64,000 nucleotides of DNA from Leucoraja ocellata (Eukaryota): the NCBI GenBank assembly GCA_036785375.1, contig JAWMAR010000035.1, positions 6,138,001 to 6,202,000 of the forward strand, in the 5' to 3' direction. The translations under genes and the position numbers were made by a program. How positions within the stretch are numbered: position 1 is the stretch's first letter; each line of letters starts with the position of its first letter. This document shows positions 18,958-49,820 of the stretch, piece by piece. The notes below the pieces were generated by a model. It worked only from the letters and a program-made list of their open reading frames with translations. It searched no databases and was not told where the DNA came from.

Positions 18958-18975
18958 TTCATACAACTTTCATAC

Positions 18976-19106
18976 CTGTTCTTTGACTGAAGCCAAAATG
19001 GTGGTTGCTGTGGTCTCAGACTCCATTGCGAGATGAGTGGGTGCTTCCCACATGGGAAGCTTCCCCTATTCCATCAATCGGACATTATCAGGAGCTGGCA
19101 TGTTAC
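18976..19106 (-). CDS. PKP4: PKP4 first coding exon (exon 2). ATG at 19101, in-frame TAG at codon 12, downstream in-frame ATG at 19026
   Basis: tttag|GTAAC ATG ... CAG|gtatga translates as MPAPDNVRLME*GKLPMWEAPTHLAMESETTATTILASVKEQ. This matches the recalled human N-terminus MPAPEQASLVEEG...MEPETTATTILASVKEQ. Canonical splice sites; adjacent to CCDC148. Confidence 0.92.
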
Positions 19107-19697
19107 CTAAACATGGGAAAACACAAGTTAATTCCTTCAAACAGTCTTTGTTTTTTCCTGGTGATCACAGCACAGAAAGCATATTATTTTTAAGCAAAGT
19201 TGAATTTAAAAGAGCAGGATATTTTCCCTTCTGTCATGGGTGCTTCTCTCAAATCCTGCTTGCAGGAACACAAAATAATTTCATCAAACAAGAATCATAA
19301 TTCCCCACAGGAATTATGCCCAGTAACACTGGCTTCCTCAGGCAGGCTAATAAACACTGCTTAGCGTATGCACCAGTACCATTCTTGCTGCCACTTCATA
19401 TATTCTCCCTATTTCCTCTTCATTCATTTTACATATAGGTCTTACCACAAAGCCCTGAATCTCATTCCCATCCCCAATTGCTCAGGTTGGTGGTGATCAG
19501 CTACCAATCTGCACAGAAACATTCCATCTAGTGTAGTTATGACAGTGCTGCAGGGCAGAGTGCTTCAAGGATCCAATCTGGAGGAGCTGTAAAAGTCAGG
19601 ATAATTTACAACTCGGAGGGGGACTTGCAGGTAATAATTTTTCCACATGTCTATTGCACTTGTCTACATTAGTGATGGAGGCTGCATGCTTGTGAGG

Positions 19698-20000
19698 TAG
19701 GGCGGCACAGTGCATGGCGGTAGAGTTGTTGCCTTACAGCGCCAGAGACCCGGGTTGAATCTTAACTATGGGTGCTGTCTGGACGGAGTTTGCACTTTCT
19801 CCCTGTGACTGCGTGGGTTTTCTCTGGGTGCTCTGGTTTCCTCCCACATTCCAAAGACATGCAGGTTTGTAGGTTAATTTGGTAAAATAGTAAATCGCCC
19901 CCAGTGTGTAGGATGGTGTTGGTGTACGGGGTGATCGTTGTACGGCACGGACTCGGTGGGCCGAAGAGCCTTTAAATATATCCACACGATATCTCTAAAG
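19698..20000 (+). mobile_element. HE1-like V-SINE, full length
   Basis: GGGCGGCACAGTG head, GGGTTGAATC B-box, V-domain, and tail GGACTCGGTGGGCCGAAG...ATCTCTAAA. Confidence 0.85.
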
Positions 20001-20427
20001 TCAATGGAACACAAGTAATGATGCAGAATCATCATCACTGCTTAACCAGTCAAAAAATGTTGAATTGGCTTATTTACCAAAATGTAACAATGAAATTGTT
20101 ACTTGCAGAAGCACAACAGGTTTGTAAACATTATTCAATAGATAATATAAACAAACAAAAGTTAAATAAATAAAACCTAATATAATGCAATACAGCATAT
20201 ACTGTAAGTGAATACACAAGCAATGGATTGTTACTAACATAACCTGCCATGTACCAGCACGGAATGTGTTCAATTCTGAGCAATACTGATATTGTAATTT
20301 ATCCAGGCAGGTGAATAAAAATAATTCCATGACATTCCTTCTGGAAAGTCTATGGAGATATACAGACGAATGACTCATCACAGGATAGCCAGTCTCTGTA
20401 CTGCTCTCATTATTGTAGTGATTGGAG

Positions 20428-21900
20428 AGTCAAGTCAAGTCACTTTTATTTCTATAGCACATTTAAAAAACAACTCTCGTCGACCAAAGTGCTTTACATT
20501 GATGGAGGTACTAACGTTATACAACATTGGTTCATAGATGCTATGTCTCTCAGAGGACATCAAGAAAGGCTTGAGAGTAAAGATTAGTTTTAAGTCTCGA
20601 CTTAAAAGAGTCGATGGAGGGGGCAGTTCTGATGGGAAGAGGGATGTTGTTCCATAGTCTAGGAACTGCAAACGCAAAGGCGCGGTCGCCCCTAAGCTTA
20701 TGCCTGGACCGCAGGATGTTCAGTAACCCCAAGTCGGCCGATCTGCGGGACCTGGAGGTAGTGTGGTGGGTTAGCAGACTATTGATGTAGGTGGGGGCAA
20801 GCCCGTTAAGGGCTTTGTAAACATAAAAAAGGATCTTGAAATGTATTCTGAACCGCACAGGGAACCAGTGGAGAGAGGCCAGAATCGGGGTGATGTGGTT
20901 TCTTTTTCGGGTGCCCGTCAGGAGTCTCGCTGCAGCGTTTTGGACCAGATGTAGGCGGGACAGGGAGGATTGGCTGATGCCAGGGTAAAGGGAGTTGCAG
21001 TAATCAAGGCGGGAGGAGATAAATGTGTGGATGATCTTTTCGAGGTCATCAAGCTGGAGGAATTGTTTTATTTTAGCTATCGTCCGAAGCTGGAAGAAGC
21101 TAGCTTTTACCACGGCATTGACTTGTTCGTCAAAGTTCAATGCCGAGTCAAATATAACGGCAAGGTTTTTGACGTGAGGTTTGAGTAATGGGGTAAGGCT
21201 TCCAAGGCTGCTTGCTATCACTTTGATTGAGTCTGAGGGGCCGAGAAGGATGACCTCAGACTTACTCTCGTTTAGTTGGAGGAAGTGCTGGGCCATCCAA
21301 CACTTTATATCCTCGAGGCAGTGGATAAGGTAAGTAGATTTGATCCATTTTTGGGCTTAAGGGGGAGATAAGAGTTGTTTATCGTCTGCATAGCAATGGA
21401 GGAAATGCCGTGCCTTTGAATGACTTGGCCTAAGGGGAGCATATACAGGGAGAAGAGAATGGGGCCAAGGGTGGAACCTTGTGGAACCCCACAGCAGAGG
21501 CTAGCTGGGGAGGAGAAAGAGTTGCATATGTTAGTCGAGATACTCCTACCTTTGAGGTAAGAGATGAACCAGCTCGGGGCATTGCCATCAATACCAACCC
21601 CATACTGGAGACGGTTTATTAGGATGGTGTGGTCGACAGTGTCAAATGCTGCGCTGAAGTCAAGAAGGAGCAGGATTACACAGTCGCCAGAGTCAACGGT
21701 GAGCAGTAGGTCATTATGTACCTTTAACAAGGCAGACTCTGTGCTGTGGTGGGCCCTGAAACCTGATTGGAAAGTTTCCGAGATAGTATTTTGGTGAAGG
21801 CAAGGCATAAGGTTACCTTTTCAAGGGCTTTTGAAAGGAAAGGCAGTTTTGAAATAGGTCTGGAGTTGCTTGGCAAGGTGGGGTCGAGGTTAGGTTTTTT
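20428..21900 (-). mobile_element. L2-clade LINE 3' half, relatively young
   Basis: [46 protein letters not shown] and SRLDYCNSL..QNAAARLL..HITPILASLHW..FKSRLKT motifs, with a (GACTT)n tail. Confidence 0.95.
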
Positions 21901-24900
21901 TACATTAGGTGGAATTACATTAAATTGCTAAAGCTACACTGCCATAACAAAACTGAGTGTATTTTCATTAGCTGGTATTTACTGTAGATTACCAATTGTG
22001 GGAAAATAGCAGATTTCTAACAACCGTAGCACAGAATACCAAAAATACAATAAAAAATTGTCACTTTTCAAATTTGGATAATTTGAAAATGCAATTGTAC
22101 AATACTTATGATAGAGAGGAAACATACATTTCCAACGGATTGCTGAGTGACTACTTTGAACTCTGATCTACTAATATTCAGTTATTGAGAAAAGGATTCA
22201 CTGAATGGTTACTAAAAAGGATGCCATTTGGTAATGCAGTGCTTACTGGTTGCAAGCAACTATGCCACATTTTTGTAAAGTCAGTAAAACTGATGTTGAA
22301 AATCAAATATTAAAAAAACAAAACAATGTCTCGTAGGCTTTCACTATGTCACGGTACACATGATAATAAGCTAAACTAAAGGTCAGGCGTCTGTCTTTGC
22401 CCTGAAAATTAACTCTTTTCACAGCTGCTGCCCGACCTGCAAATTGTTTCAGCAATTTTTGTTTTTATTTGCACTTTATTGTGTTATCTGCATATTAGGA
22501 AATATCACTTAAATGCAAAATAATTAATCTGTATTCAAAATACTGGTCTCTGTGCCAACTATGTGGGAACTCCACTGCACACCCCACTTTGCCAGGTTCA
22601 GCAGAATTTCCCATCCCAAAGGATGGAAAAATATGCTCAGTTTCAAGCTCCCCCACAAGTCCATAGGCAAGTACGCTGCTGAATGGTTCAGGAAAATCTC
22701 CAATCCAAGACTTCATTGGTTAATTGTCCAGTAAAGTAAAACGTACTCGGAAGATCTGATTTTACAGCAGATATGTTTGGGTCTCAATATCGTGATTCTA
22801 CCCCAGGATACACAAAATCCTCAGGTACCAGTCTCATCTAACCTCCATATACCCACCCGCCTAAATCAATGCTCCTGTCATTTCCGTTGGTGTAACAGTA
22901 CCTACAGTTAAACCATATTTTTCTGTATCAGTCACAGCAAAGAACATCTCGCAATTGCATCAAATCATGGCTTTGTCACTAGCAACTGCCTGTTTGGGGA
23001 ACAGCAAGGGAGGGAAGGGCAGGATAGAAATGAACAAACATTGCTCAAGGATGCCTTCAATAGTTCAAGTGTTGTAACTTGTCAGGGCATTTCCTTCTGA
23101 ACACGGTCCTTATATGGCCATCTCTATTTGCCCATTTCAGAATATTTCTTTCTATTTCACTTCAATTGTGACTCAGCTTTAAAAAAAAAAATCACAAATG
23201 GGTGGATCAGGAAAGGGCTGCAGTTAATCATCACATGGTTGCCACGTTTAAAACATTAATCACCTGTCCATTGCAAAATTCCAACTAATTTAAATACGAG
23301 ATATAATATTTTAATGATTGTGCCACCAAAGACCTCCCTGTTGCCTTCATTTATTCAGCCAGTGACAAAAGGAGTCATGGAAGTGGGCTTAATGTCTAAA
23401 GGCCAGTTAACATGTTCAAGTCAAAGTTGCAGAATGATTCATGCAAAAATACAAGTCAATATCTGCTACAATAATTTCACCCCACCTCGCTCATTTAGAT
23501 TTATATTATCCCGTCAGAATTGTAGAAGGCAAGCTATTGTTCTTCATTCACATAGATTCTTACTTTTCCACTATTGACCCTTTTATACTTCTAGTCTTCT
23601 GTTGGCCACTGGCTCAAATTATCTTAGACCTCAATATTCCCTTACTGGGATTTAACATGGATCTTCTGGACATTTCACAAACAAATTAAATTTAAACCAA
23701 AAAAAACCCCAAACTGCAGGTGCTAGTACTTAGAACTGCTGACATATCTGAAACAATAAAATTTAATTTTAACAATTGCTTCCTAACCGAGTGTTTACAG
23801 CATTTTTTTGTTTTTATCACCAAATGATTTTCTCCTTTGTTATCACATGTTCATTTTGTGCAAACCCCAAACAAAGCCACAATGTCATCCTCCAAATACT
23901 TTCCAGACCTGACCCTTTGCTATCCTTAATTTACCCTTCAAATCACCGGGCTAGTTGAGTCTAATGTTGAGAATATTTGATCCTTCTCCCTACACTTGCC
24001 ATTCAACAGCTGTCCATGGAATACCGAGGCATTGGTCACTACTTTAGACAGTCAGCGAGTCTAAACTCCTCAGCAAATTTACAGTTCTCCAATTTGCTTT
24101 GCTGACCTTTTTCTTTTAAAAGCTCAATAATATGTTATCCCTGCAACACTTGTAATTTTGGCAATAAAATAGTTGAGTTATCATCAGTTCCCTTTCAAGT
24201 TATTGTCAGCCATTAACTAGCTTGGCCGTTGTTTGGTAACTAAAACACATTAATTGCAAGTTTCAGTGTTAAGCTAAAATTGATTTGAGGCAGAACTGAA
24301 CTTCAAAAAAAAGTGGATGGAGGGACATAACCAATTTCCAAATTGAACAGGAACAGCAAGAGTCTCAATTAACTTCACCCAGGTGTTGGCCTGGGGCTTC
24401 ATGCCAGAAGTAGACTGCATTTATTCTACAACTTTTTTTTGTTAAAATAAAAAATCCTACAACTTTACCAGCAATACAAAACTAGTCCAATTTTACTGTA
24501 GATGTGTGATTACAGCTAAAATCTTAATTTATTTTCATACCTATGCCAATAATTACTCAGTTAAGAATGTGTTGAACCATATTCCTGTTGGAAAAAGTTG
24601 GAAATTAAATGAAACGTTAAAACTTTACTGTACAGAAAATTAGGAATAAGTGATGATTAACTTGGGTAAGTGGAAGAGGGGATCCAGTGTTGCAAAGCAA
24701 TTGAAAAACTGCACCAATATGTTATTTGGATTCCATATTATACAAAATATCTGGTGCAAGATTTTACCACCACAGGATTTAGTTAGGGAATCACGTCCTC
24801 CAATCCAGTGCACGGTATTCAATGCTCACAATATGAGCTCTTGCACATTGGAAACAAAAAGTGCAGACTGTGTGGGTTACACACAAATACCTGCAGCTCA

Positions 24901-25177
24901 TCCTCAGGAGTTGCTGGTTGCTGCCACTTGAATTCTCCACCTCACTCCCATTCTGAAGCAATTCCTTGCTCCATTTCACCAGGATGTTGTCAGGGATGCA
25001 GTTATGAGCAGGAAGTGGAGGGGTTGCATCTGCTTTCTCAGGAATGGAGGTTAAGATAAGGCATGATTGAGGTATATTTTGAAGGTGGACTGCAGGAAAC
25101 ATTTCTTCACAGAGAAACTGGCAGAGTTTATATCAGGAACTTTTCAGTCACTTCCTCAATTGGCAGCAGCACTTGAA

Positions 25178-25847
25178 ACTTTTAAAATTTTTCCCCTGCA
25201 CGGAGAACCCGACCTTTCCCTGTCGGGTCTCAGGTGTCGTTGGGGCTGCACCGTGGAGCGGCCTCCAGCAGGAACGTCCTGGAGCTCCAGTCACGGAGCT
25301 GCGGAGCTACTCACCATCACGGAGCTGGCCGAGTCCGGAGCGGGAGGAGCGGTGGTGGCGCGCTGCTGCGACCCGACCCTCGGAGATTCGGAGGCTTACC
25401 GCAGGTCTGGTGGACAGTGACACCGGGAGCCCGCGGGTCCCTGCTGGGAGACCGCTTTTCGGGGCTTCCGCAACGGCGACTTCTCCCGCCCGAGTAGCTG
25501 GGTCGAGGATGACCTGGAGCGGGGCCTTACATCATCGCCCGGCGTGGCTTCAACGGCTGCAGGACTTTGCCAGCGCCCGCCCGGGGCTCCAACAAGACCC
25601 GGAGCGCAGCCTTGCATCACCCGGCGCAGCGTTAATGGCCGCGGGACAATTGTTATCGCCCGCCGGGGAGAGATACTTTTTTTTGCCTTCCATCACAGCG
25701 AGGTGGAGATGCGCTGTGATGGATGTCTGTGTAAATTGTGTTGTGTCTTGGGTCTTTTTTTTTCTTGTATGTATGACTGCAGAAACAACATTTCACTTGA
25801 GCCTCTATGAGGTTCAAGTGACAAATAAATTGTATTGTATTGTATTC
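25178..25847 (+). mobile_element. Non-coding GC-rich retroposon with stem-loop and (TATTG)n tail
   Basis: Highly similar to the reverse complement of 29101-29770. Ends GTGACAAATAAATTGTATTGTATTGTATT. Confidence 0.75.
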
Positions 25848-28800
25848 TGTGTACTGAAGCAAAGCAAGAATATCATTGTCCTATCAGGGACACATGACAA
25901 TAAACTCACTTGAACTTTTATAACCACCCTTGGTGAGAAGTGCCATATGGATTGTCCTTTCATCTCACCTATCACTGCAGAAGTTAATATTCATCAAATT
26001 TAATTCACAAATGTTGTTCCACAATAGTCACAAAATGGGGCTTAACCAAAATGCAAAAAAATCAATTGCATCATTTTGAAAAAGCAGAACAAATCCAATA
26101 TAGCTTGAGAATTCTAGTTTCCTACTAGTCAATGGTAAATTGATGGAAGATCTGTTGTTAATTGTGTTAAAGAAGCACTTACTTTACCAATGAACTGGCT
26201 ATCAAACGTTCAATTTGGTTTTCACTAGTTAAGTTCCAGATATTATTACAGTCTATAATTTAATTCATAGTTCCACAGGGGAATTCCTGCAATTAGTGCC
26301 TGCAATTGGTTTAATTGACAACATACAGCATCATAGGTCAATGTCCGTCAATCAAGAACAAAAAAAATCTCCCTACTGACTGGGACGTACCAGCTCAAAG
26401 TACAATGATAGTGAAGATTAATTACCTTAACCTAGAATATCGAGTCAGACATATATAGCACGGAAACTGGCTCTACAGCCCTCTGAGCCCAGGTCAGTGT
26501 GGACAACCATTCACTGGCACAAGAGTACCCAAGGGGAATATCATATGCCCAACCACCTTCAACTGTTTCATCAACAACTTCTTTCCATCACAAAAATCAC
26601 GTGAAGATGTTTGCACATTAGTAATGATTAAAACTAAATCTTTAATCAAAAAGCAACAAAAGTTGAAATATTGGAAATCTGAAATAAAAGGTGTCTGTAG
26701 ATGAGGTATACAGAATTGTGAGAAGCAAAAATGTAAAACCTATGGGGTATAAGATTTAAGGCAAGGGATTGGAGATTTAGAAAGGATCAAATAAAGAATT
26801 ATTTTAACCAAAGGCTAGAATTTGGAATGGTGTTTGATGGGGTGGTGGAGGCAGAGGCTTACAACATTTAACAAGTGTCTGGATAAACACTTGAATCACA
26901 AAGGCATAGAAGGCAATGAATGGGCCAAGTGTCATAAAACAGGATTAAGTATACATGGGTACTTGATGGTCAGCACAGATAGTGGTATTTACCTTGTGGA
27001 GGAACATTCTTGCAGTAGAAACAGTTCAAGGAAGGTTTACTTGTCCGATTCCTGGAATGTAAAAAGTTGGTTTTGAGGGAAAGCTAACTGACAGGGGTTT
27101 AGAAAAGTGAGAGATGATTTTATTAAAACAGATTCTGAAATGAGAAATTAGGCAATAATTCCAAATTTAGCAACAGAAATTGGCCCTTCAGCCCACTGAG
27201 CCAAGGTCAGTGTTGGCTTAGCTCCAGGGTGGGAGAATTTTCACCACAAGAGCTGTAGCAGTTCAGGGCAACTACTCACTGCATTCAGTGAAAATAAGAA
27301 CACAAGAAATAGTAGATGATCATTTGAATCCTCCATTCAATATACTCAATCTTAAACTTTTTTGCGTCTATCTTTAGTAAATTCACTACCTTCGGTGAAG
27401 TTTCTTCATTTTAACCCAAAAAAGCAACCCTTTATTTTGTGACGTGTGAATACATGGTGGACTTTCCAGTAACATTCACATCTGCCAAACAATTTAAAAA
27501 CTCTTGTTCCAAATTCCCTTGGTATCACCTCTCAACATTATGTCCCCCTTCACCATCATTCCAGTCTGAACCTCTCACATAGCTTTCTGTCCATGTAAAG
27601 AAACAAATGAGCAACAGACTTTATGACTTGGAGCTTGTTCTAACATTTAGCAGGACCACAGTCAATCTGATCTTGGCACAAGCTTCACTTTTCTAACCAT
27701 CACTCCAGGCCATTTCACATCCTTACAGAGCAAACATTGCAAAATATTCCATCTGTCCAACTCGATGGAATATATTCCAATGCTTAGTCTCCACAGTTGC
27801 ATGGGAAGATCATTTCAAAATTAACAACCTTTGGAGAAGAAATTCATCTTCAACAAGCAACTCCTTTTTTCTGAAATTATGTCCTCGGTTCCAGATTCCC
27901 TCGAGGGGAAACATCCTTTCTACATCAAACCATGTTAGAATCTTTCAGAATCTGTGTTTTAATAAAATTGTGCCTCATTTTCCTACATTGCAGACAGTTA
28001 ACCTTCCCTTCACAAACCAACTCTTTACATCCCAGATATCAACCGAGTGAAACTTCTTTGAACTGCCTCCAATGCGAAAACACTCCTCCACAAGGCAAAA
28101 TGTCAAAAAATCCAAAGCTCAGAGCACTGGCATCACAAATGCTTCTCATTTTCCTCAAGCTGTCTGTAGATAGTGACCTCGTTGTGGACACCATCCACTT
28201 TGATTGATGCCTATCCATCATTCAGTCAAGTGGGAATGCACTTATCTGGTTACCGCTGTAGATAAGAAAAATAAACCCTCCAATTACCCAATCTTCCTAC
28301 TCACACACCATTATCTCAACAGTTCACAGCCTCGCCTGGGGACCTTCCTCCTCTCCCCCACCATTTTCATCGATGCTGACACAGAAACCACAAGTTCCAA
28401 ATGTAAACGCACGAAAGCCCGAATCAGAAGTTTCTGAAAGTCGATAATGCCACAATGCACCTGGAGTAGAGACTCAACTCCCGAGTTAAGATATCCACAC
28501 TAGCTCAAAATTACTCGAAACATGTTGGAATTGCTTATTTTCAAATTCTTCCTCGACTTTGTTCCCTCCTTCATCCCCCATAAGGCTTAAATCTATGTGT
28601 ACCTCCAATTCAGGTATCTTGGACATCCGATTTAATTTGCTACAGTGGTTGCTGTGCTTTCAGCTGCCTCGACCAAAATTCAGAAATTATGTTTAAACTA
28701 TCGCTGCTCAAAACCTACCCTTTTTGATCAAGTATTTTACTCAACCATCCCGTTTATTCATGGGGTTTGGAGACAAATTTTGCTTAATAAGTTGTGTCTT

Positions 28801-29100
28801 TAGTTTTACAAAATGCAAGTGTTTTAAAGTCTTTCTTGATCAATAAAACATGAGATTTCTACCAAAGTTGTGGATTGCATTCACCACTGTCATGAAAATA
28901 AAATCAATAAACATTTCAAAAAGCTTTACTAAAACAACCGAGACTATTATCACATTTGATATTTCTATGGTAAGCATACTAGAAAAAAATTGAATCAGCC
29001 TGAAAGGTTGACCCAAAATGTCACCTATCAATGTTCTCCAGAGATGCTGCCTGTGTCCTATTGTGTAAACCAGCATCTGCAGTTCCTTGTTTCTAGTTCC

Positions 29101-29950
29101 TTGTCATTTGACCCTCAAATGAAGTTCAAACGAAATTTGGTTTCTGCAGTCATACAACAAGAAAAAAAACCAAGACACAATTAACACAAACATCCATCAC
29201 AGTGAATCTCCTCCTCACTGTGATGGAAGGCAAAGGCATTGTGATGGAAGGCATTGTCTCCCCCGTTTTCCATTCTTCTCCCGATGTTAAAGCTCCCGGC
29301 GGGTGATGGTAAGTCCCGCGGCCGCTAAGGCCTCGCCGGGCGATGCAAGGCCCTGCTCCGGGTCTTGATGTTGGAACCCCCGGCGGGCGATGGCAAGTTC
29401 CATGGCCGTTAAAGCCGCGTCGGGCGATGTAAGGCCCCGCTCCGGGTCGTTTGCAATCCCGCAATTCGGGCGAGAGAAGTTGTCGTTGCAGGAGCTCCTA
29501 AAAGCGGTCTCCAACCAAGGACCCGTGAGCTCCCGATGTCACCGTCCACCGGCTGGTGCCTCTGAAGTCGGGTCGCAGCCGCGCGCCACCACAGCTCTCC
29601 ACGCTCCGAAGCCGGCCAGCTCAATGATGGTGAGCCAGCAGGCTCTGCAACTGGAGCCCCCAGGCCGTTCCTGTTGGAGGACGCTCCACGGTGCTAGGCC
29701 CCAACGACAACGGAGACCCGACAGGGAAAAGGTCGGGTCCCTGTGCAGGGAAGAGATTAAAAGGTTTTCCCTCTCCCGCCGCCCACATATAAGTTTGTCT
29801 GCAGAAACCAAATTTCATTTGAACTTCATTTGAGGTTCAAATGACAATAAACGGTATTGTATTGTATACACAGCTAAAAACAATATATAAACTACAACCA
29901 AACTATACACTCAACAGGACAAAAATTTTAAAAAGACAGACGGACTGCAC
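29101..29950 (-). mobile_element. Same retroposon family, carrying an inverted extra copy of its own tail at 29799-29867
   Basis: Homologous to 25178-25847, and to the head of 15112-15788 at 29868-29950. Confidence 0.7.
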
Positions 29951-30310
29951 AGTTGTGTAAGAACCAACTTTTCCACATCTTCCAAGCACAATTACAGTAT
30001 TTCTTGGAAAAACAGCAGGCTTGAACTGGAGATTTCGAACTTGAGAGCTGCATGTTAATACCTGTAGTCACATTTCAGGTATGGAAGGAAAGGCGAGTAG
30101 GAAGGAACTGCAGATACTGGTTTACACCAAAGTGATGGACAAGTATGCAATACAAATGCATTATAAGGTAAATTTAATTACTAAACTTATTCAGTACATA
30201 TGCCCAGAACAAAATTCACCTACCGAAACATACCATCTTAAGGCAAAATATATAATTAGTGCAAAGAAAATGACTAATAATGCAGAAGGAAAAAAAATCT
30301 AGTCATAACT

Positions 30311-30765
30311 GCTCTACATCGGTGAGATCAAACGCAGGCTTGGCGATCGCTTTGCCCAACATCTCTGCTCAGTTTGCACGAACCAACTTGATCTCCCAGT
30401 GGCTCAGCACTTCAACTCCTCCTCCCATTCCAAATCCGACCTTTCTGTCCTGGGCCTCCTCCCTGGCCAGAGTGAGTCCCACCGCAAATTGGAGGAGCAG
30501 CACCTCATATTTTGTTTGGGTAGTTTACACCCCAGCAGTATGAACATTGAATTTCAGGTAGTCCTTGCTTTCTCCCTCCTTCCCCTCCCCTCCTCAACTC
30601 TCCCACAGCCTACTGTTTCCGCATTTTCCTTTCCTCTTCCCGTCCCCACTTCCCCACCCCCACATCAATCTGAAGAACGGTCTCGACCCGAAACGTCACC
30701 TATTCCTTCGCTCCATAGATGCAGCCTCACCCGCTGAGTTTCTCCAGCATTTTTGTCTACCTCTG
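30311..30765 (+). mobile_element. Penelope-like element 3' end: GIY-YIG endonuclease C-terminus plus pseudo-LTR
   Basis: Translates as LYIGEIKRRLGDRFAQHL...PVAQHFNSSSHSKSDLSVLGL...RKLEEQHLIFCLGSLHPSSMNIEF. Confidence 0.9.
30667..30700 (+). ncRNA. Minimal type I hammerhead ribozyme motif (Penelope-associated)
   Basis: CUGAAGA (30670-30676), stem II GGUC-UC-GACC, GAAAC (30690-30694), GUC triplet. ACGU palindrome replaces stem III; stem I is weak. Confidence 0.7.
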
Positions 30766-31711
30766 ATTTTATTGTAATAAGCTTTTGGATGCAAAGAAAC
30801 TTAATGATCATTGTGATTAAAAAAAATTCCCAATACACCAGTTAGAACCGGTTAGAAACAGTGACTCAGCAAACGAAGAAGTTTAAGAGGTTAATACAAT
30901 TTGCCAAGTCATTACAGGCGTTTTAACATTTCTGGAAGCTCCGAGCTGATACCTGCTTGGGCATGCAGTTCATCTTCACAATGCTTTGCTCCAGGAAGGC
31001 TGCAAGTATTGTCAAGGATGAATATCACTCTGGCCATTCCCTTCTCTCTTTTTTTTAATCTTGTGGGAGAAGGTAAAGTATCATGAATGTTTGGGCAACC
31101 AGACTCAAGAACAGCTTCTCAGCTTCTCCCCCCCCCCCCCCCCCCCCCCCACTGCTAGATGGCTGAACCAATCCCTTTTCATATCCCATTCCCAGAGATG
31201 CAGCCCTCTATCTCTATTCTTACCTCCATCTCATTTGGTTGTCGTTATTGTACTTTAATATAATTTTGCACTACTCAGAGTTTGTACTACAATCTTGCAC
31301 CATTCTCCCATTTTGCACTCATCATTGTATTCGTCATTACTATATGTATACTGTTTATTCTGTGAATACACAATAAATTGCATTGCATCCTGGTGTATAT
31401 GACAATAATCTAATAATTTAATCTATCCAGCAGTTTTAGCTATGACAGTACAACCTTGGAGTTGGTGAAAATGTTTTACAGAAGATGCAAAATCAGCAGA
31501 ACACCAAAATAGTCCAGAAAATAGGTCTACATGCATGTCAGCAGAATTAAAAAAGGTCAGAACAGATGTTTAAATATTTTTGCTTCACTAAATGTCCTTC
31601 AGAAATTAGTCCAAAACCTAAACAAGACTATCTTGTTCTGGAATAGCCCCCTAGGGTGTGAAATTCATCTTTACATCGCCTGAGTCACCCTTCCAACTGT
31701 ATCTAAATCAA

Positions 31712-31890
31712 AAGGAGACATAAGGAACTGAAGATGCTGGTTAACAAAAAAAATGCTCGAATAACTCAGCGAGTCGGGCCACATCGCTGGAGAACATGGT
31801 TCGGCGATGCTTCGGATCAGGACTGGATTCAGACTGATGAAGGTTCCTGGCCCGAAACATCTCCTATCCATCTTCATCAGAGATGCTGTG
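31712..31890. mobile_element. Fold-back Penelope-tail element with a hammerhead core
   Basis: Inverted arms with CTGATGA (31834-31840)...CCCGAAACATC. Confidence 0.7.
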
Positions 31891-32526
31891 TGATTGTTAC
31901 CCTTGCATTCGTCTTTTTTTGTATCTAAAAAGAATTCAGAGACATGGCTCACCCCCAGCTCCCCAGACTCAGCAGTCCAGCCTGATGGGTTCTCCATCCA
32001 CCGTATGGACCGTACCCTGGCATCTGGGAAAGGGAGAGGAGGGGGCGTCTGCCTCATGGTCAACTCTGCATGGTGCTCAGTGGCAGTCCTATCCAACTCC
32101 TGCTCTCCACACCTCGAACATCTGGCGGTGAAGTGCCGTCCCTTCTACCTCCCAAGGGAATTCACCTCCATTATCCTGACCGCGGTCTACATCCCATCCC
32201 AGGCAGACGTCCGTCTGGCACTGGAGGAGCTGCACGCCGTGGTCAACAAACACCAGACATCTTATACCGAGGCATTTACCACCATTGCTGGGTACTTCAA
32301 TAAGGCAAACCTAAAGAAATCACTCCTAACTTCCACCAACATGTCTCCTGCTGCACCAGAGGACCTAACACCTCGACCACTGCTACACCACCATCAAGAA
32401 TGCCTATCGTTCTATCCCTCGCCATCACTTCGGTAAATCCGACCATACTGCAGTGCTGCTTCTTCCTGCCTACAGGCAGCAATTAAAGAGCGCACCCCCA
32501 GAAGAGAGGACAGTACAGAGCTGGTT

Positions 32527-32543
32527 GGGGGGGGGAGGGGGGG

Positions 32544-32600
<57 letters not shown>
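32527..32600 (+). repeat. Poly-G tract (~74 nt) inside the LINE ORF
   Basis: Seen directly, with two A interruptions. Confidence 0.9.
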
Positions 32601-32603
<3 letters not shown>

Positions 32604-34532
32604 AGGAACAACTCCAGGACTGTTTGGAGTCTGTAGACTGGGCAATGTTCAAGGACTCGGCAACAGAATACGCCACAGTCATTACAGACTTCGTAAAGAA
32701 ATGTGTGGAGGACTGCATCCCTACAAAAACTTCCGAGTGTTTCCCAATCAGAAACCTTGGATGAACTTTGAGATCCGCACTCTTCTGAAGTCCAGACACA
32801 GGGCATTCACTTCCGATGATACAGTGGCCCACATGAAGTCCAGATACGATCTTGGTAAGGCCATCAAAAGGCCAAAAGGGACTTCTGCTCCAAACTGTTC
32901 GGCAGCTGTGGCGGGGCCTGAATGCAATCACCTCCTACAAGGCGAAACCAGGAGGCAGCTCGAATGTCGGTGAAACATCACTCCTGACGAGCTCAATGCG
33001 TTTTACGCACAGTTTGATAGGGAGAATACTGATGTGCCTTCCCGATCCCCCATTTGCTGTGGTGGCATTTCAGTCTCAGTCACAGAGGCCAACCTAAGGA
33101 AATCCTTCAGAGGAGTGAACCCCCGAAAAGCACTTGGACCTGATGGTATACCAGGTCGTGTTCTAAAAACCTGTGCGGACCAACTGGCTGGAGTGTTTTC
33201 AGACATTTTCAACCTCTCACTTCTGAGGTCTGAGGTCCCCACCTGCTTTAAAAGGGCATCAATTATACCAGTGCCCAAGAAGAGTAAGGTAACGTGCCGC
33301 AATGACTATCGACCAGTGGCACTAACGCCGGTGGTGATGAAGTGCTTTGAGATGTTGATCATGGAGTAAATCAACTCCCACCTTTACAAAAACCTGGACC
33401 CACTGCAGTTCGCTTACTGCCACAACAGATCAACGGTGGATGCGATCTCGCTGCCCTCCACTCCGCTCTGGACCACTTGGACAACAAAAACTTATATGTC
33501 AGGCTGTTATTCATCGATTACAGCTCGGCATTTAACACAATTATCCCCTCCAAGCTGGTTACCAAACTCGCAGAACTGGGTCTCTGCGCATCCCTCTGCA
33601 ATTGGTTCCTCGCCTTCCTCATTCACAGATCACAGTCTGTTCGTATTGGTGGAAATGTGTCAGCCTCGATAACAATCAGCACGGGAGCACCTCAAGGCTG
33701 CATGCTCAGCCCCCTGCTGTACTCGCTCTGTACTCATGACTGCATAGCCAGTCACAGTGCGAACTCCATCATCAAGTTCGCTGACGACACCACTGTTGTG
33801 GGGCGTATCACTGATGGGGATGAGTCAGAGTATAGAAGAGAGATCGAGCAACTGTCCATATGGTGCCAGCACAATAACCTGGCCCTCAACACCAGCAAAA
33901 CCAAGGATTGTGGACTTTGGAAGGAGTAGGAGGGGGACCCACAGCCCCATTTATATCAACGGGTCGATGGTTGAAAGGGTCAAGAGCTTCAAATTTCTGG
34001 GCGTGCACATCTCTGAAGATCTTTCCTGGTCCGAGAACACTAATGCAATTATCAAGAAAGCTCATCGGCGCCTCTACTTCCTGAGAGTCGGTTTGTCAAG
34101 GAAGACTCTCTCTAACTTCTACAGGTGCACAGTAGAGAGCATGCTGACCTGTTGCATCGTGGCTTGGTTCGGCAATTTGAGCACCCTGGAGAGGAAAAGA
34201 CTACAAAAAGTAGTAAACACTGCCCAGTCCATCATCGGCTCTGGCCTTCCTTCCATCGAGGGGATTTATCGCAGTCGCTGCCTCAAAAAGGCTGGCAGTA
34301 TCATCAAAGACCCACACCATCCTGGCCACACACTCAACTCCCTGCTACCTTCAGGTAGGAGGTACAGTAGCCGGACGACTGCAACAACCAGGTTCAGGAA
34401 TAGCTACTTCCCCACAGCCATCAGGCTATTAAACCTGGCTCGGACAAAACTCTGATTATTAATAACCACTTTTCTGTTATTTGCACTTTATCAGTTTATT
34501 TATTCATGTGTGTATATATTTATATTATGGTA

Positions 34533-36178
34533 CAGGTGCACAACCTTTTATCCGAAAGCCTTGGGACCAGACACTTTTCGTAATTCAGAATTATTCGGCT
34601 TTCGGAAGGGAAGTTTTTAGCGTAGATTTTAACGGCTGGCTCAGTGGTAGAGTGCTCGGCTCATATCCGCAAGATCGCGAGTTTGAGTCTTCAATGTAGT
34701 TTTTTCTTGCAGAATAGGAGAGAATAGGGAGGGTTAGGCTGGGATCATTCTCTGCGAGATGATCTTAGTGCGGGAGACAAGTGTTGGAGAGGTGTACTGA
34801 CTGTGTGGGCAGAACTTTGGAAGTGATTGGCCCCATTCTCAAAAGCCGCTGTGTCTCCCTGTCCCTCCAACTCCAGAGGAATCCGCTCCCCGATGGGCCG
34901 CTACGGCGACAAGTGGCAGTGACAGCCGAGCTGCGCCACCCCAAGAACAAGACGTACCTTGCACACCATCAGCTTCTGCGTGTTCCTCTGGAGTTGGAGC
35001 GGGGCTGGGATCTCCGTGCTTGCAGTGGGCCTGGGGGTCGGTGTCCCGAGGAGGGGGCGCAGCTCGGGTTGTGGGCGAACTGCCACGTCGCCGTAGCGGC
35101 CCATCGGGGAGCGGCTTCTGGTGGTCCTGACGTCTCTCAGCTCCTGTCCAGGGGGGTGGCCGGAGACGTCAGGACCAACAGGAACCCGCTCCCCGATGCA
35201 CAGCTACAGCGACAAGTGGCAGTTCGCCCACAGCCCGAGCTGCGCCCCCTCATCCGCAGCCCGGGTTCCTCTGGAGTTGGAGCGGGGCTGGGCTAGAGTT
35301 GCTGCTGGCTGTGAGTCTCTGGGATCTCCGTGCTTGCAGTCGGTGTCCCGTTGGTCCTGACGTCTCCGGCCACCCCCTTGGACAGGAGCTGAGACTGGGA
35401 ACTGTACTGCCCTTGCCCCCTCCCTCTGCAACTGCAAACAACCCCACAGTTCCCAGTCTCAGCTCCTGTACAGGGGGGTGGCCAGAGACGTCACAGCCCG
35501 AGCTGCGCCGCCTCATCCGCAACCCCAAGACCAAGACGTACCTTGCACACCATCAGCTTCTGTCCCTACGGGGAGCGTGTTCCTCTGGAGTTGGAACGGG
35601 GCTGGGCTGCTGCTGGCTGTGGGTCTCTGGGATCTCCGTGCTTGCAGTGGGCCTGGGGGTCGGTGTCCTGTTGGTCCTGACGTCTCCGGTGACTGGCACT
35701 GACCTGCTGGCATCGCCGACGTGAAGACAGTGCAAAGCCCCCGCGCCGGTGCAATGGGCGGGGAGCTGGAGAGGGGAGGGAAGGGGTCACACACATGGCC
35801 GGGAAGCAGAGGGGTGTAGGTGGGGTGAAACTGAAGGGAGCAACAATCTGCTGCTGCCTGCCGCTGAGTTTAAAAGGTTCCCACGCAAGGCTCACGATAC
35901 ACTGTGTATCGTGAGTCTACCGTGCGAACTTTTTAACAGCGGGCAGGCAGCAGCAGATTGTCAATTATTAACCCTCCCGCGCAATATACCCTCACCTTCT
36001 CTTTTATGAATGGGGATTTAGTTCCCCTTTCTTCGAGGACCAACCGGAGGTTCCGCTGTCACCTCTGCGGGCCGCCCTCGGTGAACGTCTTCAAGGACCT
36101 TTCTTCAAGGACCGAAAAAATGTCCGCTATTCGGAGCTTTTCGTTATTTGGAACTTCGGATAAAAGGTCGTGCACTTG
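34533..36178. mobile_element. Non-autonomous pogo/Tigger-like TIR element
   Basis: TA|CAGGTGCACAACCTTTTATCCGAA ... TTCGGATAAAAGGTCGTGCACTTG|TA (24-bp TIR, 2 mismatches). The Rex1 3'UTR is continuous across it. Confidence 0.88.
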
Positions 36179-36419
36179 TATATGGACACACTTATCTGTT
36201 TTGTAGTAAATGCCTACTATGTTCTGTGTGCTGAAGCAAAGCAAGAATTTCATTGTCCTATACAGGGTCACATGACAATAAACTCACTTGAACTAAAAAT
36301 CAATGATTGATTTAAAGAGGCCTTCACTGTTCCTGAAAATCAGCAGAAAAGCAGGCAATGCAGAACAGAATCTAGAAGGGCCAAAAGAGAAAAACATTTG
36401 AAGCAAATCACTGCAATGA

Positions 36420-36692
36420 ATCCATTGGCCCTTTGGCCCACCGGGTCTGCACACACTAGAGATCACACTAACTCTATCCTACACACACTAGGGACAATTT
36501 ACATTTATACCAAGGTAATTAACCTACAAAAACCTGTATGTCTATGGAATGTAGAGGGAAACCGACGATCTCGGAGTAAACCCATGCAGTCAGGGGGAGA
36601 ATGTACAAACTCCATACACACAGCACCCGTCCGGATCGAACCCTCGCCTCTAGTGCTGTAAGGCAGTACCTCTACCGCTGCACCATGCCGCG
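36420..36692 (-). mobile_element. HE1-like V-SINE
   Basis: Reverse complement has a GCGGCATGGTGCAGCGGTAGAG head and GGGTTCGATCC B-box. Confidence 0.8.
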
Positions 36693-36727
36693 CTTAAATG
36701 ATTGAAAAGTTCATGGGAAAATAATAA

Positions 36728-37113
36728 AGCCCCTGTCCCACTTAGGAGACCTAAACAGCAACCTCTGGTGACCTTGCCCGCTACCCAAAAAAAAAATTAA
36801 AAAATCAAGGTCGAGGTGACCTGCAACCTTCTACCACCTCCCACGCATATTGAAAACCTTCCTCGACTATGAAGAAATCCGCCTTCGACTAAAAAATTAT
36901 CGATTTTTAAAACGGCAACCTATTTTTAGTTGAGGCCGGTTTTAAACATGATGAAAAAAACAGCAGCAACCTAGATGAAGCCTTGACCTCGCGGGAACCA
37001 CTTTCGACCATTAGGGAGAGTGACCAAAACTTCCGGTGACCTCATGGAAACCTTGGGGGGCGGGCAAGGACACCAGAGGTTGTTGTTTAGGTCTCCAAAG
37101 TGGGACAGGGGCT
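36728..37113. mobile_element. PIF/Harbinger-type MITE
   Basis: ~54-bp near-perfect TIR AGCCCCTGTCCCACTTAGGAGACCTAAACAGCAACCTCTGGTGACCTTGCCCGC. TAA TSD at 36725-36727 and 37114-37116. Confidence 0.9.
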
Positions 37114-37125
37114 TAAAGGTATTAC

Positions 37126-37922
37126 TTTTTTTTCTTTTTTTAAATTTCAAAATAGACCTTATTCAATTGATAAATATATACAATTCATGAACCATTCGAA
37201 CAAAAAATTCATCCGACATTTTTGGAGACTACAAATTTTTTTCAGTACAATATTTTTACATTTGTCAAATTTCACCAAAACTGTCCCCCACCCATGCCAC
37301 TCTGTGGCCCCTGTCCAAGTAATAAATATATACAATGTGTGCACAGTTCGAAAATTCCATTCGACATTTTTGTAGGTTATAGAGATTGTTCAATACAGTT
37401 TATGTCTTTCAAATTCCACAAAAATGTCCCCCACCCGTGCCACTCATGTGGCCCCCTGGTGTGGGATACCTTCCCTTAATTTAATTTGAGGGGCATCTCC
37501 ACCATACCGTGCCCCCCATGTCCAGAAGCGGAAGGACCCTAGACTGTGGCCCTCCCCCACCAAGCCTTGGCGTTGGCTGCACCAAGCTTCAGCAAGTCCC
37601 TTAGCACGTACTCCTGCAGTCTGCAGTGGGCCAGTCGGCAACATTCCCTGACGGACATCTCAGTCTGCTGGGTGGTGAGCAACGCTCGGGCAGACCAAAG
37701 AGCGTCTTTCACCGAGTTGATGACCCTCCAGCAGCACTCGATGTCAGCCTCTGAATGTGTACCTGGGAACAGTCCGTAAATCACAGAGTTCTCTGTGACG
37801 GAGCTGTTCGGGATAAATCGTTCCAGGGACCCTTTCATACTTCTCCAGACTCTTTTTGCAAATCCACACTCTGCAAAGAGGTGGGCAACCGTCTCCTCTC
37901 CATAGCAGCCATCCCGAGGGCA
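37126..37922 (-). mobile_element. Tx1/L1-clade LINE 3' end
   Basis: CCHC knuckle (CPRDGCYGEETVAHLFAEC), C-terminus VIYGLFPG..KDALWSAR..EYVLRD, internally duplicated 3'UTR, and poly(A). Confidence 0.85.
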
Positions 37923-38339
37923 GCTTTAGAAAAGCAGCCCATTTACAAGAAAAGCAGCCCATTTGGTGAATTTTCAATTCAAGTCACTGAAGTATTTGAA
38001 CTTGAATCATTTCTGCACAAGAAATGCTCATTCCCCCCAATCCATATATTTCCCCCAAATCTTAGAAAGTGGTACATCTAAGGAGACTTTAAAAATCCAA
38101 ATTTGTATGTTTTGAATTAAAAATGAGTGCAAAATTGGTTTCTAAAGTAAATGCCCGATTCTCCCTTTTATATATGCAAGGTCACTGGTGATCTGGTGAG
38201 ATCAGGTGTTTTATTTCTTACCTTGTTAAATACCAGTACCTATTCTAAGTATATTTATACCGCTCCCAAACTTTGTCAACCATTTGTAAACTGCATAGAC
38301 TATATCCGGAATTCCTAACCTGCAGGTTATTGGGGACAT

Positions 38340-38465
38340 GTGTAGGAAGGAACTACAGATGCTGGTTTACACTGAAGATAGACACAAAATGCTAGAGTAA
38401 TTAATTTGGACAGGCAGCATCTCTGGAGCGAAGGAATGTGTGACATTCAGGTCGAGACACTTCAC
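38340..38465 (-). mobile_element. Short Penelope-tail element ending in a decayed hammerhead
   Basis: TGTAGGAAGGAACTACAGATGCTGG...GTGACATTCAGGTCGAGAC. Confidence 0.7.
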
Positions 38466-41321
38466 ATGGGAACTAGTTTTTGATGGCACTGGAGAGATGG
38501 GTGACATGTGAAATAAGTAACATTTTTCAATGTTTCAAATAATACTGAAACATTTTTGGTTGGTCAGAGCCAAATGACCTAGCAAATCCAAGCAATTTGA
38601 TTGCATATGGAATTGATTGTGGCAGAAGGGGAAGAGGTAGGTAGTAGATTTTTTTTAATTGTTTTAACAATAGGAATATAATTTGAATTGTAAACTAGTG
38701 AATTATTTAAAACCAATGACTGAATACACTACTGATTGAATTCCCAAGTTTTACATGTTTGCTTAAAAATGGCAAAACACTACACATTTTAGAGAAGAAA
38801 TATTGTCTTGCAATTGTTTGATTACAATCCATGCAGAGGTTAGGTTGTTAATATTTTCAGCATTTAAAATATCAATATCTTTGTTGAGGTATAAATCAGT
38901 TTGTGTAATTAAAATAAAAAATGTCTCATGAATGCGGTCTTTGGAGGAGATTTAAATTTCCTTGCTTTGGAAATGGGTGTACCACTGAATTTATATGGTG
39001 ATACAATAATTCAAAGGTCCAATCTTCTTTTCAATGTTGTACGTTCTTGTACACAAAAAGCAGCAGCCAATACGCATAGCAACCACAAAGAAAATTACTT
39101 CAAATGACTATCAACAACCAACAGGCAACCGGGTGGGATTTTGGCTCCAGGATTGTCCTAGCTACAAACTTAAGAAAAAGTGGTACTATGAACTTTTGAT
39201 TGAACTATGAACTATAGATTGATGGTGTACAGTTGCTCACAGAAATGTTATTTGTGACATTGTTCCAAGATGCTGAAATCCTGTCTCAGGTTGAAACTAT
39301 TAGAGAGAGATAGGCATTCATCTGGTAGGCTTGTGGAGTGAGAAACAAAAGTCTGGAGGTAAAGCAACAATCTGAAAGAACTACTCAAAAAGATTTTGAT
39401 CTATCATTGGGGAAATTCTAGATTTCATTCTTAAGGTAATAGCAGTTCCTTTAGAAAAGATAGAAGTATAGAAATATACAAAATCCTGTAGAATTATGAG
39501 TGGCATAGATAAGAGTCTATTTCCAAAGGAGTTCATTGTGAGAGGGAGAAAGTTTACGATGAGAGGGGAAACGTTAAAAAGATGCATGGCAAGAAATGTC
39601 TGTTTACACAGTTGTAAATGCCTGGAATGCTTTGCTGGGCAGGTGGTAGAAGCAGACATGATAGCTACTTTTAAAGAGGCATTTAGACAAGAACAGGCAT
39701 GGAACAAGAAGGATACAGACCATGTGTTATCACCGTCAGTGCAGACGTGGTGGCCTGTACTGTACTAGGTTCCAAAAGGTAGAGATGGAATAGTTAGTGT
39801 GTAACTATAGTTGGATGGCACAGTGAACAGACAGCTAAGCATTGCATAGCTTTAATTTGAAAGTGTAATTTCAAATGGACTTGAAAGAAATGCAAGTGCA
39901 ATTGCATTCTCCCATCTCCCCCAAACACTACCAATTCCCATCAAGGATAAGAGATAGAAATGTGGTTAGAAAATAGTTGGTTGTGAAGGAAAGGGAATGT
40001 GATTGTAGATGACCATCGTTATTGCCAATCAGCAATTGAATTAATATCTACTATACACATTACTCATGATGGTGTATGTGATCACTTTTTGCAATGCTAC
40101 TCATTACAGGGTTCAAAGTGGTACACTCGAAAGTCAGAATCTAAATTTACATTCAGCCCAAAACTTTGTGATTCTGGGCAAAGGTTAAAGAGCAACACTC
40201 AATTAGAAACACTTGTATGGACTTCACAGCACCTCAACATAACACATGGAGTTAGAGAAAGGTTACGATTGAGGTTTACTATACAAACAGGATATTAGAT
40301 GAGAAAGAATGAAAGATTATTTCCCTGGCCTACCCCTCTTTGGAACAGAGACCAAACATTTACAAGAACTGAGGGACGGAGAAATTAAATAATGAACAAT
40401 TTAATTCCAAAGGTTAACAAATTCACATCAAGATGTGATGATATGTTGTAAATTAATCAAATTAGGTGTTTTGTAAAGCACGCAGGATCAAATTAACAAT
40501 GCTCTACCACATGGAATTCAACAAAACAAAAATTAGGTAAGTGGATGAAAAATAAAAAAAGGATCAAGGATAAGGCTAGTAAATGGCAGTGTGCTGCAGA
40601 AAGAACAAGCCACAGTCAGTGCACTTTGGGCTGGTAACTATACTAAAGCTGATTTTTATCAAGACTTAAGCGCAATATTTATGATGCGTGTAACTTCTGC
40701 TCAGTTGGTTTACCAATGTTTAAAGATTTTAGAATCTTTGCTAGAAGGTTAGATAATGAAACATTTGGAAATAAAGATAAGGCTGTTAAGTCTGTAACGA
40801 AACACGATTGTGATCAATGCAATCTATTTCTGCTCATTCATCTCCATTTGTCTGCAACGTTCGACAAGCTGACCACTCTGGAAGGTTCCAAGATCTGCAA
40901 GATAAAAACACTACACAAATTGGAACACACTACCTGAGCTGCACTTTTATCTATTCAATCATGACCACAGAAAATCCAGCAATTGCTTCACTTCCTACTC
41001 CCAAACCTCTGGCATTCCCCAGGGATATCTCCTTGACAGTCTTCTTCTCCACTGAATTACATACTACCTGTAGGTAACAGCTGATTTCATTTGCATACGA
41101 TAACATTTAGCTCTACTCCTATCACCAGCTCTTTCGACTGTTCCAGTGTTTCAACTGTCGGAAAGTTTATTCAACATCCAACAATGAACAAACTGATATT
41201 TTTTCAAGCTGAACACTGTATAAAATCATGAGGGGAATAGATAGGGTGAATGCAGAGCTTTTTACCCACCAGGATAAGGGAATCAAGAACCAGAGGAAGG
41301 CGGCGAGAGGGACTCCGAGGG

Positions 41322-41757
41322 CAGGGGCGGAAATCCCGGGGGGGCCAGGGGGGTACACATCCCCCCTCCGTTTTGAGAGGCGGGGGACATCCCCCCCCCC
41401 CAGTTTTTGTAATCCGGATTTTAAAACCCGGTGAAATCTCCGCTTTCCGCGAGACAGTGGGGGTTGGACTGCTGAGCGAGGGCGCCGGTTGGACGAGAGA
41501 GACATTGGTCAGCAGGCAATGGGGGCGGGACATGATGATTCAGCGATCATTGGAGGAGGGAGGAGTGGGGGGGGGGGGGGGTGTCCCGTCAGTCCAGGCA
41601 GGGCTGTAGGTTAACCCGTCGAGACAGGCAGAGTTGAGCTGCATTTGGTGCTGGATTCAGCCTCCGAAGCCTCGCATGAGTGTGCGCATGCACGCGCAGC
41701 CGCCAAAAAAATGTCCCACCAGTCCCCTCCATATTTTGATAGCGATTTCCTTGCCTG
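41322..41757. mobile_element. hAT-like MITE inside an old plus-strand CR1 3' fragment (~41215-41900)
   Basis: Imperfect TIR CAGGGGCGGAAATC / GATTTCCTTGCCTG, with a degenerate 8-bp flank match. CR1 sequence resumes afterwards. Confidence 0.5.
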
Positions 41758-41900
41758 CCCAAGTGGCAATGTTTAAACACAGAGGGTGATTGCCATATGG
41801 AACGAGCTGGTATAGGAGGTAGTTGAGGCAGATACTATAAAAGTATTTAAAAGACACTAGGACAGGTCCATGCCTAGGAAAGGTTTAGAGAGCTATGGGC

Positions 41901-43370
41901 AATAGACAATAAGTGCAGAAGTAGGCCATTCGGCCCTTCCAGCCAGCACCAACATTCAATATGATCATGGCTGATCATCCACAATCAGTACCCTGTTCCT
42001 GCCTTCTCGCCACATCCCCCGACGCCGCTATCCTAAAGAGTTCCATCCAACTCTCTATTGAAAGCATCCAGAGAATTGGCCTCCACTGCCTTCTGAGGAA
42101 GAGAATTCCAGATTCACAACTCTGGGTGAAAAAGTTTTTCCTCATCTCCGTTCTAAATGGCCTACCCACATTCTTAAACTGTGGCCCCTAGTTCTGGATT
42201 CTCCTAACATTGGAAACATGTTTCCTTCCTCTAGCATGTTCAATCCCTTAAATAATCCTATATGTTTCAATAAGATCCCCTCTCATCCTTCTAAATTCCA
42301 GAGTACACAAGCCCAGCCGCCCCATTCTATCAACATATGACAGTCTTGCCATCCCGGGAATTAACCTTGTGAACCTACGCTGCACTCCCTCAATAGCAAG
42401 AATGTCTTTCCTCAAATTTGGAGACCTAAACTGCACACAATACTCCAGGTGTGGTCTCACTCAGGCCCTGTACAACTGCAGAAAGACCTCTTTGCACCTA
42501 TACTCAACTAGTCGTGTTATGAAGGCCAACATGCCATTAGCTTTCTTCACTGCCTACTTCCCCTTTCCCCAACTTGACACCATACAAGTAATAAACTGCC
42601 TTCCTGTTTTAGCCACCAAAGTGGTTAATCTCACATTTATCCACATTAAACTGCACCTGCCATGGATCTGCCCACTCACCCAATCTGTCCAAGTCACCCT
42701 GCATCCTCATAGAATCCTCCTCACAGTTCACACTGCCATCCAGCTTTGTGTGATCTGCAAATTTGCTAATGTTACTATTAATCCCTTCATCTAAATCATT
42801 AATGTATATTGTAAATAGCTGCGGTCCCAGCACCGAGCCTTGCGGTACCCCACTAGTCACTGCCTGCCATTCTGAAAGGGACCCGTTAATTCCTACTCAG
42901 TTTCCTGTCTGCCAACCAATTTTCTATCCATGTCAGTATCCTACCCCCAATACCATGTGCTCCAATTTTGCCAACTAATCTCCTATGTGGGACCTTATCA
43001 AATGCTTTCAGAAAGTCCAGGTACACTATATCCACTGGCTCTCCCTTGTCTATTTTCCTAGTTACATCCTCAAAAATTCCAGAAGATGAGTCAAGCATGA
43101 TTTCCCCATGGTAAATCCATGCTGACTTGGACCAACCCTGTTACTGCTATCCAAATGTGCTGCTATTTCATCTTTTATAATTGACTCCAGCATCTTCCCC
43201 ACCACCGATGTCAGGCTAACTGGTCTATAATTCCCTGTTTTCTCTGCCTTTCTTAAAAAGTGGGATATCATTAGCTACCCTCCAATCCACAGGAACTGAT
43301 CCCGAATCTATAGAACAATATCTATAAAATGGTCACCAATGCATTCACGATTTCTGGACCTACTTCCTTC
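41901..43370 (-). mobile_element. CR1 LINE 3' part with intact tail
   Basis: [36 protein letters not shown] and RPHLEYCVQF motifs. Same subfamily as 1-2318. Confidence 0.93.
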
Positions 43371-49735: not shown

Positions 49736-49806
49736 CCACCACCTGGCCGCCACGCTATTGGCCACTCGCCGCGCCACATGACAGCCAACCGCAGGGCGAG
49801 TACTTG

Positions 49807-49820
49807 GTTGCCATGGCGCC
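49807..49820. promoter_or_regulatory. RFX X-box-like site
   Basis: GTTGCCATGGCGCC versus the consensus GTTGCCATGGCAAC (12/14). Confidence 0.55.

Follow-up and report, generated by a model that had tools for sequence, protein, structure and literature searches.

An in-frame stop at codon 12 of skate PKP4 is fixed and transcribed, and translation likely starts at the second methionine

The ancestral reading frame of skate PKP4 is interrupted by a TAG at codon 12, which is a real, fixed and transcribed feature of the gene. PKP4 translation likely begins instead at an in-frame ATG further downstream, at position 19026, with the ancestral start left as the predicted start of an 11-codon upstream open reading frame (uORF).

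Results

Layout of exon 2 and the 5′ end of the PKP4 transcript

The window, the whole 64,000-nt stretch of DNA analysed, contains exon 2 as its sole PKP4 coding exon, and no further ones were found in it. The elements of this exon are as follows.

18976..19106, minus strand: PKP4 exon 2, 131 nt long and the first to code; RNA of three organism labels shows splicing at both of its ends
19066..19101, minus strand: ancestral start ATG 19101 and the 11 codons MPAPDNVRLME, closed by TAG; predicted uORF
19074..19085, minus strand: out-of-frame 3-codon uORF, from ATG 19085 to TGA 19076-19074
19066..19068, minus strand: in-frame TAG at codon 12, at the site of a conserved Glu
19051..19053, minus strand: in-frame ATG 19053 in a weak context, CCC ATG T (C at -3, U at +4)
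18976..19026, minus strand: likely true start ATG 19026 (GCA ATG G) and the first 17 codons of short PKP4

On the minus strand, the acceptor of exon 2, a polypyrimidine-AG site, reads ...TTTAG/GTAAC and the donor CAG/GTATGA. ATG 19026, with G at both -3 and +4, lies 39 nt past the TAG and 25 codons past ATG 19101, and the 13 codons between the TAG and ATG 19026 are open. ATG 19053 is only 12 nt after the TAG, and the 26 residues read from it are identical to the PKP4 RefSeq proteins of two skates. Another in-frame ATG, at 19074, opens a 2-codon frame closed by the same TAG (19068-19066). The initial annotation had described the ATG, the 11 codons, the TAG, the intact frame and splice sites and the strong ATG 19026, all of which are exact; its layout stands but is incomplete, as it left the strand, which is minus, unstated and missed in-frame ATGs 19053 and 19074, out-of-frame ATG 19085, three ATGs in exon 1 and a predicted hairpin. 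Its grading of the start contexts was correct for ATG 19026, but ATG 19101 (AAC ATG C), which it contrasted with that strong context, is adequate rather than weak because it has A at -3 (graded by the start-context rule given in a section of PMC7397870). A row for Q99569 in a published supplement confirms the human EEG that it gave for the codon-12 site. Among 40 unique bony-vertebrate segments, 38 have Glu at position 12 and 37 have Gly at position 13.

Upstream of exon 2, RNA delineates a non-coding exon and a long intron.

49536..49739, minus strand: PKP4 non-coding exon 1, in a CpG island, defined by RNA read ends, 5′ end approximate
19107..49535, minus strand: intron 1, 30,429 nt, GT-AG
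49656..49703, minus strand: exon-1 uORF of 15 codons in a strong context (ACC ATG G); ATG 49661 has the same stop
49596..49619, minus strand: exon-1 uORF of 7 codons

Loose ends of raw RNA reads gather at the two exon 2 borders (28 reads at 19106 and 33 at 18975). The letters upstream of 19106 in RNA reads match 49538-49562 and no other place in the window, next to the exon 1 donor CAA/GTGAGT at 49536/49535; those downstream of exon 2 run in frame into PKP4 exon 3. Beyond the 5′ border of exon 2, the two probable transcript contigs run on for 204 and 196 nt. GC content is 0.57-0.70 across 49401-50000, the CpG island at the PKP4 promoter, where 49779-49876 holds further ATGs, beyond the 5′ ends of the contigs. 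If the mRNA begins near 49739, as the contigs suggest, six AUGs (49703, 49661, 49619, 19101, 19085 and 19074) head frames of 1-15 codons and are followed by ATG 19053 and ATG 19026. The segment beginning at ATG 19101 is thus an AUG-uORF by definition, having an AUG and an in-frame stop before the main start in the mature mRNA. Among the rows listed, the RNA has neither a joint nor a depth step at the TAG, and the stop is therefore not spliced around. The frame is open for 68 codons ahead of ATG 19101, but an extension from a non-AUG start there was considered and rejected, since the TAG would close it too and one transcript contig (X20) lacks 2 nt at the end of exon 1. These 2 nt (49536-49537) are present in the window, in the raw RNA reads (X24) and in the other transcript contig (X15), and their absence is probably a genomic difference of the organism concerned.

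Several repeats accompany the gene. A high-copy, transcribed short repeat at 18800-18960, likely a SINE, begins ~15 nt inside intron 2, beside the exon 2 donor; its summed contig depth reaches 37,000 in the DNA run X8, and a second copy lies at 7560-7653. Intron 1 holds a tRNA-Ala-like sequence (46636-46710, minus strand, ARAGORN), possibly a tRNA-derived repeat. Broken LINE reverse-transcriptase frames are found in intron 1 and upstream (20550-21927, 31894-34452 and 57895-59934), and a run of N occupies 60941-61083.

No change is listed at the stop codon in RNA and DNA of related organisms

Four runs with four organism labels, from a list of 24 runs, were compared with the window; the best-matching label (A) is not one of the four. 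X24 consists of raw oligo-dT RNA reads, of which ~5% of the run was used, with a depth of ~40 (15.8+24.2) in the bin holding the stop codon. X15 and X20 are transcript contigs (RNA by guess) of 4527 and 4525 nt, the depth of which ends exactly at both exon 2 borders, and X8 is a DNA contig. Among the rows listed, none of the four has a change at 19066-19068. The X20 contig has a single exon 2 difference, synonymous and at 19018; X15 has one, which the tally of change types places elsewhere than at the first base of TAG; and X8, which spans the exon, has none among the rows listed, with 14 listed in the intron at 19145-19417. A further 34 difference rows and 66 loose-end rows belong to the comparison beside those listed, and a minor variant at the stop may be among them.

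The TAG noted at 19068 thus stands in raw reads and RNA, with no GAG or CAG among the rows listed. A base-call error, a private nonsense allele or a dead pseudogene is now only a very remote explanation. The first two, which the initial annotation had kept among its options, are refuted by the lack of any listed change at the codon in four organism labels, one of which is covered by raw RNA reads, and by the protein models of 17 species described below; that the best-matching label lies outside the four runs is the one point in their favour. Full-length transcripts and intact frames of 1,185 aa exist, so the marks of a pseudogene or polymorphic null, a private allele and decay in the rest of the gene, are both absent.

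Short PKP4 N-termini across cartilaginous fishes

For chondrichthyan proteins, we considered the named ones among the members listed for two large clusters (15/72 and 15/18). They represent 18 species, of which Rhincodon has only a model lacking exon 2, leaving 17 informative. The long N-terminus is absent from annotated PKP4 in all 17 among the members listed. In 15 species (five rays, nine sharks and Callorhinchus) the listed proteins start at the Met equivalent to 19026, and in two skates, Leucoraja erinacea (XP_055494064.1) and Rhinoraja longicauda (XP_078259976.1), they start at 19053, as does a Logan model. The chondrichthyan open reading frames are about 1,175-1,190 aa long and hold the head motif and the ARM repeats in one open frame. 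The bony-vertebrate set comprised 128 proteins (the top matches of 2,010 plus others), many of them isoforms, reducing to the 40 unique segments. The first Met is present in 121 of the 128, the other seven being frog-like models that start at an internal Met of an open frame; none starts at the second Met, which is retained in every one.

The short chondrichthyan N-termini are automatic gene models, and the position of the stop and the survival of the first ATG were seen in skates alone. The shark models would imply a closed frame or a lost ATG upstream of the second Met. Degenerate patterns for the exon gave no matches in metagenome and viral contigs, and a search of proteins of 23-74 residues found no candidate. 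The stop had been noted as a feature of one species; it holds for skates, and at the level of protein models the short N-terminus extends to all 17 species and includes the chimaera. In Mobula, two PKP4 models (P0023 and P0029) have 10-11 extra residues between exon 2 and exon 3, within the conserved head.

Whether one event accounts for this distribution can be weighed from the same data. This particular TAG may be confined to skates, other cartilaginous fishes having lost the long head through other lesions, which would be compatible with the uORF mechanism. The good alignment of the dead segment and the near-identity of all organisms compared at the DNA or RNA level are consistent with that possibility, which we regard as the less probable one, given that the long form is missing in 17/17 species of skates, rays, sharks and chimaera, against 0/128 bony proteins starting at the second Met. 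Because of the same counts a single loss is simpler, and from the protein models it would most simply be placed in an ancestor shared by sharks, rays and chimaeras.

The long N-terminus is ancestral

The direction of change was assessed from paralogs and outgroups. CTNND2 of fish and hamster starts with MPVP[ED] ~36 residues before the motif, and delta-catenins of a hemichordate, an annelid, two molluscs and a tick start with MP.. 25-37 residues before it. Since CTNND2 and these five invertebrate proteins have a long head, the long N-terminus is ancestral and was subsequently lost, and Glu12 became the stop. In a quick tree, the skate proteins identical to exon 2 fall within a 14-row PKP4 clade (SH-aLRT 100); chondrichthyan and bony PKP4 group together (support 100), apart from CTNND2, ARVCF and p120. 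Branch lengths in this quick tree are unremarkable, with no long skate branch. One protein, P0156, which groups with a hagfish delta-catenin, combines an MPV start with a second Met directly ahead of the conserved motif, a hint that this arrangement of two starts is older than jawed vertebrates.

In humans, the PKP4 N-terminal peptide 2-18 has been detected, according to rows of PMC10267514 and PMC4770386, so that mammals do initiate at the first Met. These sources gave no sign of initiation at the human second Met, nor did two others: PKP4 does not occur in eight supplement files of PMC7397870, the rows of PMC10267514 and PMC4770386 give the 2-18 peptide only, and PMC11974929 gives UTR lengths only.

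Signs of constraint on the segment upstream of ATG 19026

None of 1000 nucleotide shuffles kept free of stops resembles bony PKP4 as closely as codons 2-11 do (p=0.001), so this likeness is not due to chance; p-values from 1000 shuffles are 0.007 for codons 6-11 and 0.003 for codons 13-25. The codons after the stop are as bony-like as the translated segment of catfish (5.4 vs 0.6 and 0.1). In X8, there are 0 listed differences in 131 exon nt versus up to 21 in 465 flanking nt (Fisher p=0.005). In the four close organisms the uORF is invariant among the rows listed, and the 80 nt before ATG 19026 taken alone give p=0.03-0.07 against the flanks in X8. A long-dead frame would not obviously keep 13 bony-like codons, which is a point against the uORF reading.

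A predicted hairpin directly after the stop

Immediately downstream of the TAG, the RNA is predicted to fold.

19039..19065, minus strand: predicted hairpin with a 7-bp core stem (19060-19054/19049-19043), a 4-nt loop holding AUG 19053, and an outer 3-bp helix

The hairpin (19065-19039), which was noticed post hoc, has a predicted folding energy of -17.1 kcal/mol. None of 1725 sampled 28-nt windows attains this value (z -3.7), nor does any of 200 shuffles of the 40-nt window. No Rfam family was found within the window.

Discussion

Alternative readings of the stop

The hairpin bears most directly on programmed readthrough, in which ribosomes starting at ATG 19101 would decode the UAG, aided by the hairpin, so that a long isoform persists beside the short one. 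The stop and the letters after it, UAG GGG, conform to the type III motif UAGGGV and, followed by a stable structure, resemble the type III (gammaretroviral) signal. The frame is intact, with both halves as tetrapod-like as the catfish coding segment, the structure right after the stop is very stable, and the stop region is invariant in the four runs among the rows listed. The GG after the stop is, however, expected from the ancestral Gly13, and an open stretch of 13 codons is common by chance. Known stimulators need a spacer of 8 nt or more, and 11-12 nt lie inside the ribosome, according to part of PMC13517186; the structure in MoMLV is a pseudoknot. In the skate, a simple hairpin without a pseudoknot follows, with an outer helix that begins at once and a core stem only 5 nt after the stop, near the start of a cellular gene. 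Thus, the sequence context of a type III signal is present but the spaced structure is not, and we consider readthrough improbable. It is equally doubtful that in cartilaginous fishes a conserved UAG, in its retrovirus-like context and with the hairpin, forms a recoding switch that governs how much long (readthrough) PKP4 is made relative to short (re-initiated) PKP4. If true, such a switch would put a vertebrate readthrough signal where a gene begins and not where it ends.

Two further readings concern the start and the mRNA itself. The main start in skates could be ATG 19053, as in RefSeq, giving a protein 9 residues longer than in sharks and rays. This is the first in-frame ATG past the stop and is used by the Leucoraja, Rhinoraja and Logan models. 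Against it stand its weak context, its position 12 nt after the stop and within the hairpin loop, and the 15 other species, none of which uses it as a start. Annotation also tends toward the longest frame. We therefore think a main start there unlikely, and the RefSeq start of the skates is likely placed 9 codons too early. Removal of the stop from part of the mRNA, by A-to-I editing or by an alternative acceptor, is very improbable. The A of the UAG is paired in a predicted whole-exon fold, and rows of the comparison beside those listed leave some room for either process; yet no T>C at 19067 and no joint inside the stretch appear among the rows listed, the depth of the raw RNA reads is flat across the TAG, and editing would yield Trp rather than the ancestral residue.

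Proposed translation of skate PKP4

Use of the downstream start at ATG 19026 beneath a uORF, one of the options put forward initially, is the best supported reading, by short models in 17/17 species and by the transcribed stop. Scanning ribosomes would encounter as many as six AUGs further upstream, half of them in exon 1 and half in exon 2. Those leaking past them, or re-initiating, would skip the weak, hairpin-buried AUG 19053 and start at AUG 19026; leakage past ATG 19101 is possibly limited because of its A at -3. Stops close to a start readily allow re-initiation and escape NMD, and spacing of 39-42 nt was favourable for p53, as described in part of PMC10275272. The product would lose ~25 low-complexity residues and keep the ILASVKEQ head and the ARM repeats. 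In p120-family proteins the conserved head binds DIPA/CCDC85 (in a section of PMC4148249). Because the second Met is kept in 128/128 bony proteins, it could likely already serve as a spare start when the loss occurred, and the stop would therefore have been tolerable. The present effect of the uORF would be to damp or adjust the translation of PKP4.

Relation to known systems

Bony PKP4/p0071 (human Q99569, Latimeria P0122) is the orthologue of the skate gene and has the same exon, an MPxP[DE] start, the second Met, the ILASVKEQ end and the ARM repeats. It reads on from the first Met, with 26-27 residues before the second, whereas the skate exon has a stop at codon 12 and one codon fewer. The skate RefSeq models, with their identical 26 residues from 19053, already imply a closed frame upstream but make no mention of the ancestral start, the uORF or the hairpin. 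The proposed mechanism resembles re-initiation after start-proximal stops in ATRX and ATP7A patients and in wheat Rht-B1b/Rht-D1b, where an early stop and a downstream AUG give a shortened functional protein; for the wheat alleles re-initiation is established (part of PMC12867750). Those cases are within-species alleles, whereas the skate stop is fixed across species and may be so throughout a vertebrate class. Conservation of in-frame AUGs further downstream is a pattern already known (sections of PMC7397870 and PMC3025576).

Within the family, p120-catenin has four ATG starts, as stated in a section of PMC4148249. The start of ARVCF- and p120-like proteins lies 9-11 residues ahead of the conserved motif, and that of short PKP4 lies 9 ahead of it; p120 isoforms gain or lose a whole 101-aa head, whereas PKP4 loses only the ~25 residues before the conserved head. 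In the literature searched, mostly without subscription papers, no paper on a short cartilaginous PKP4 start was found, and the part of the PKP4 review PMC11863852 that was available mentions neither isoforms nor alternative starts. A uORF derived from the ancestral coding start is apparently lineage-wide and is undescribed in the literature searched; the class of mechanism is well known.

Skate PKP4 would be a clean natural example of the birth of a uORF, in which an early stop turns the old start into a leader element and the second Met takes over. An entire vertebrate lineage can likely dispense with the first 26 PKP4 residues, which bony vertebrates have retained. On our reading, human Met28 may also be able to serve as a second start, a prediction that matters for the interpretation of early PKP4 nonsense variants.
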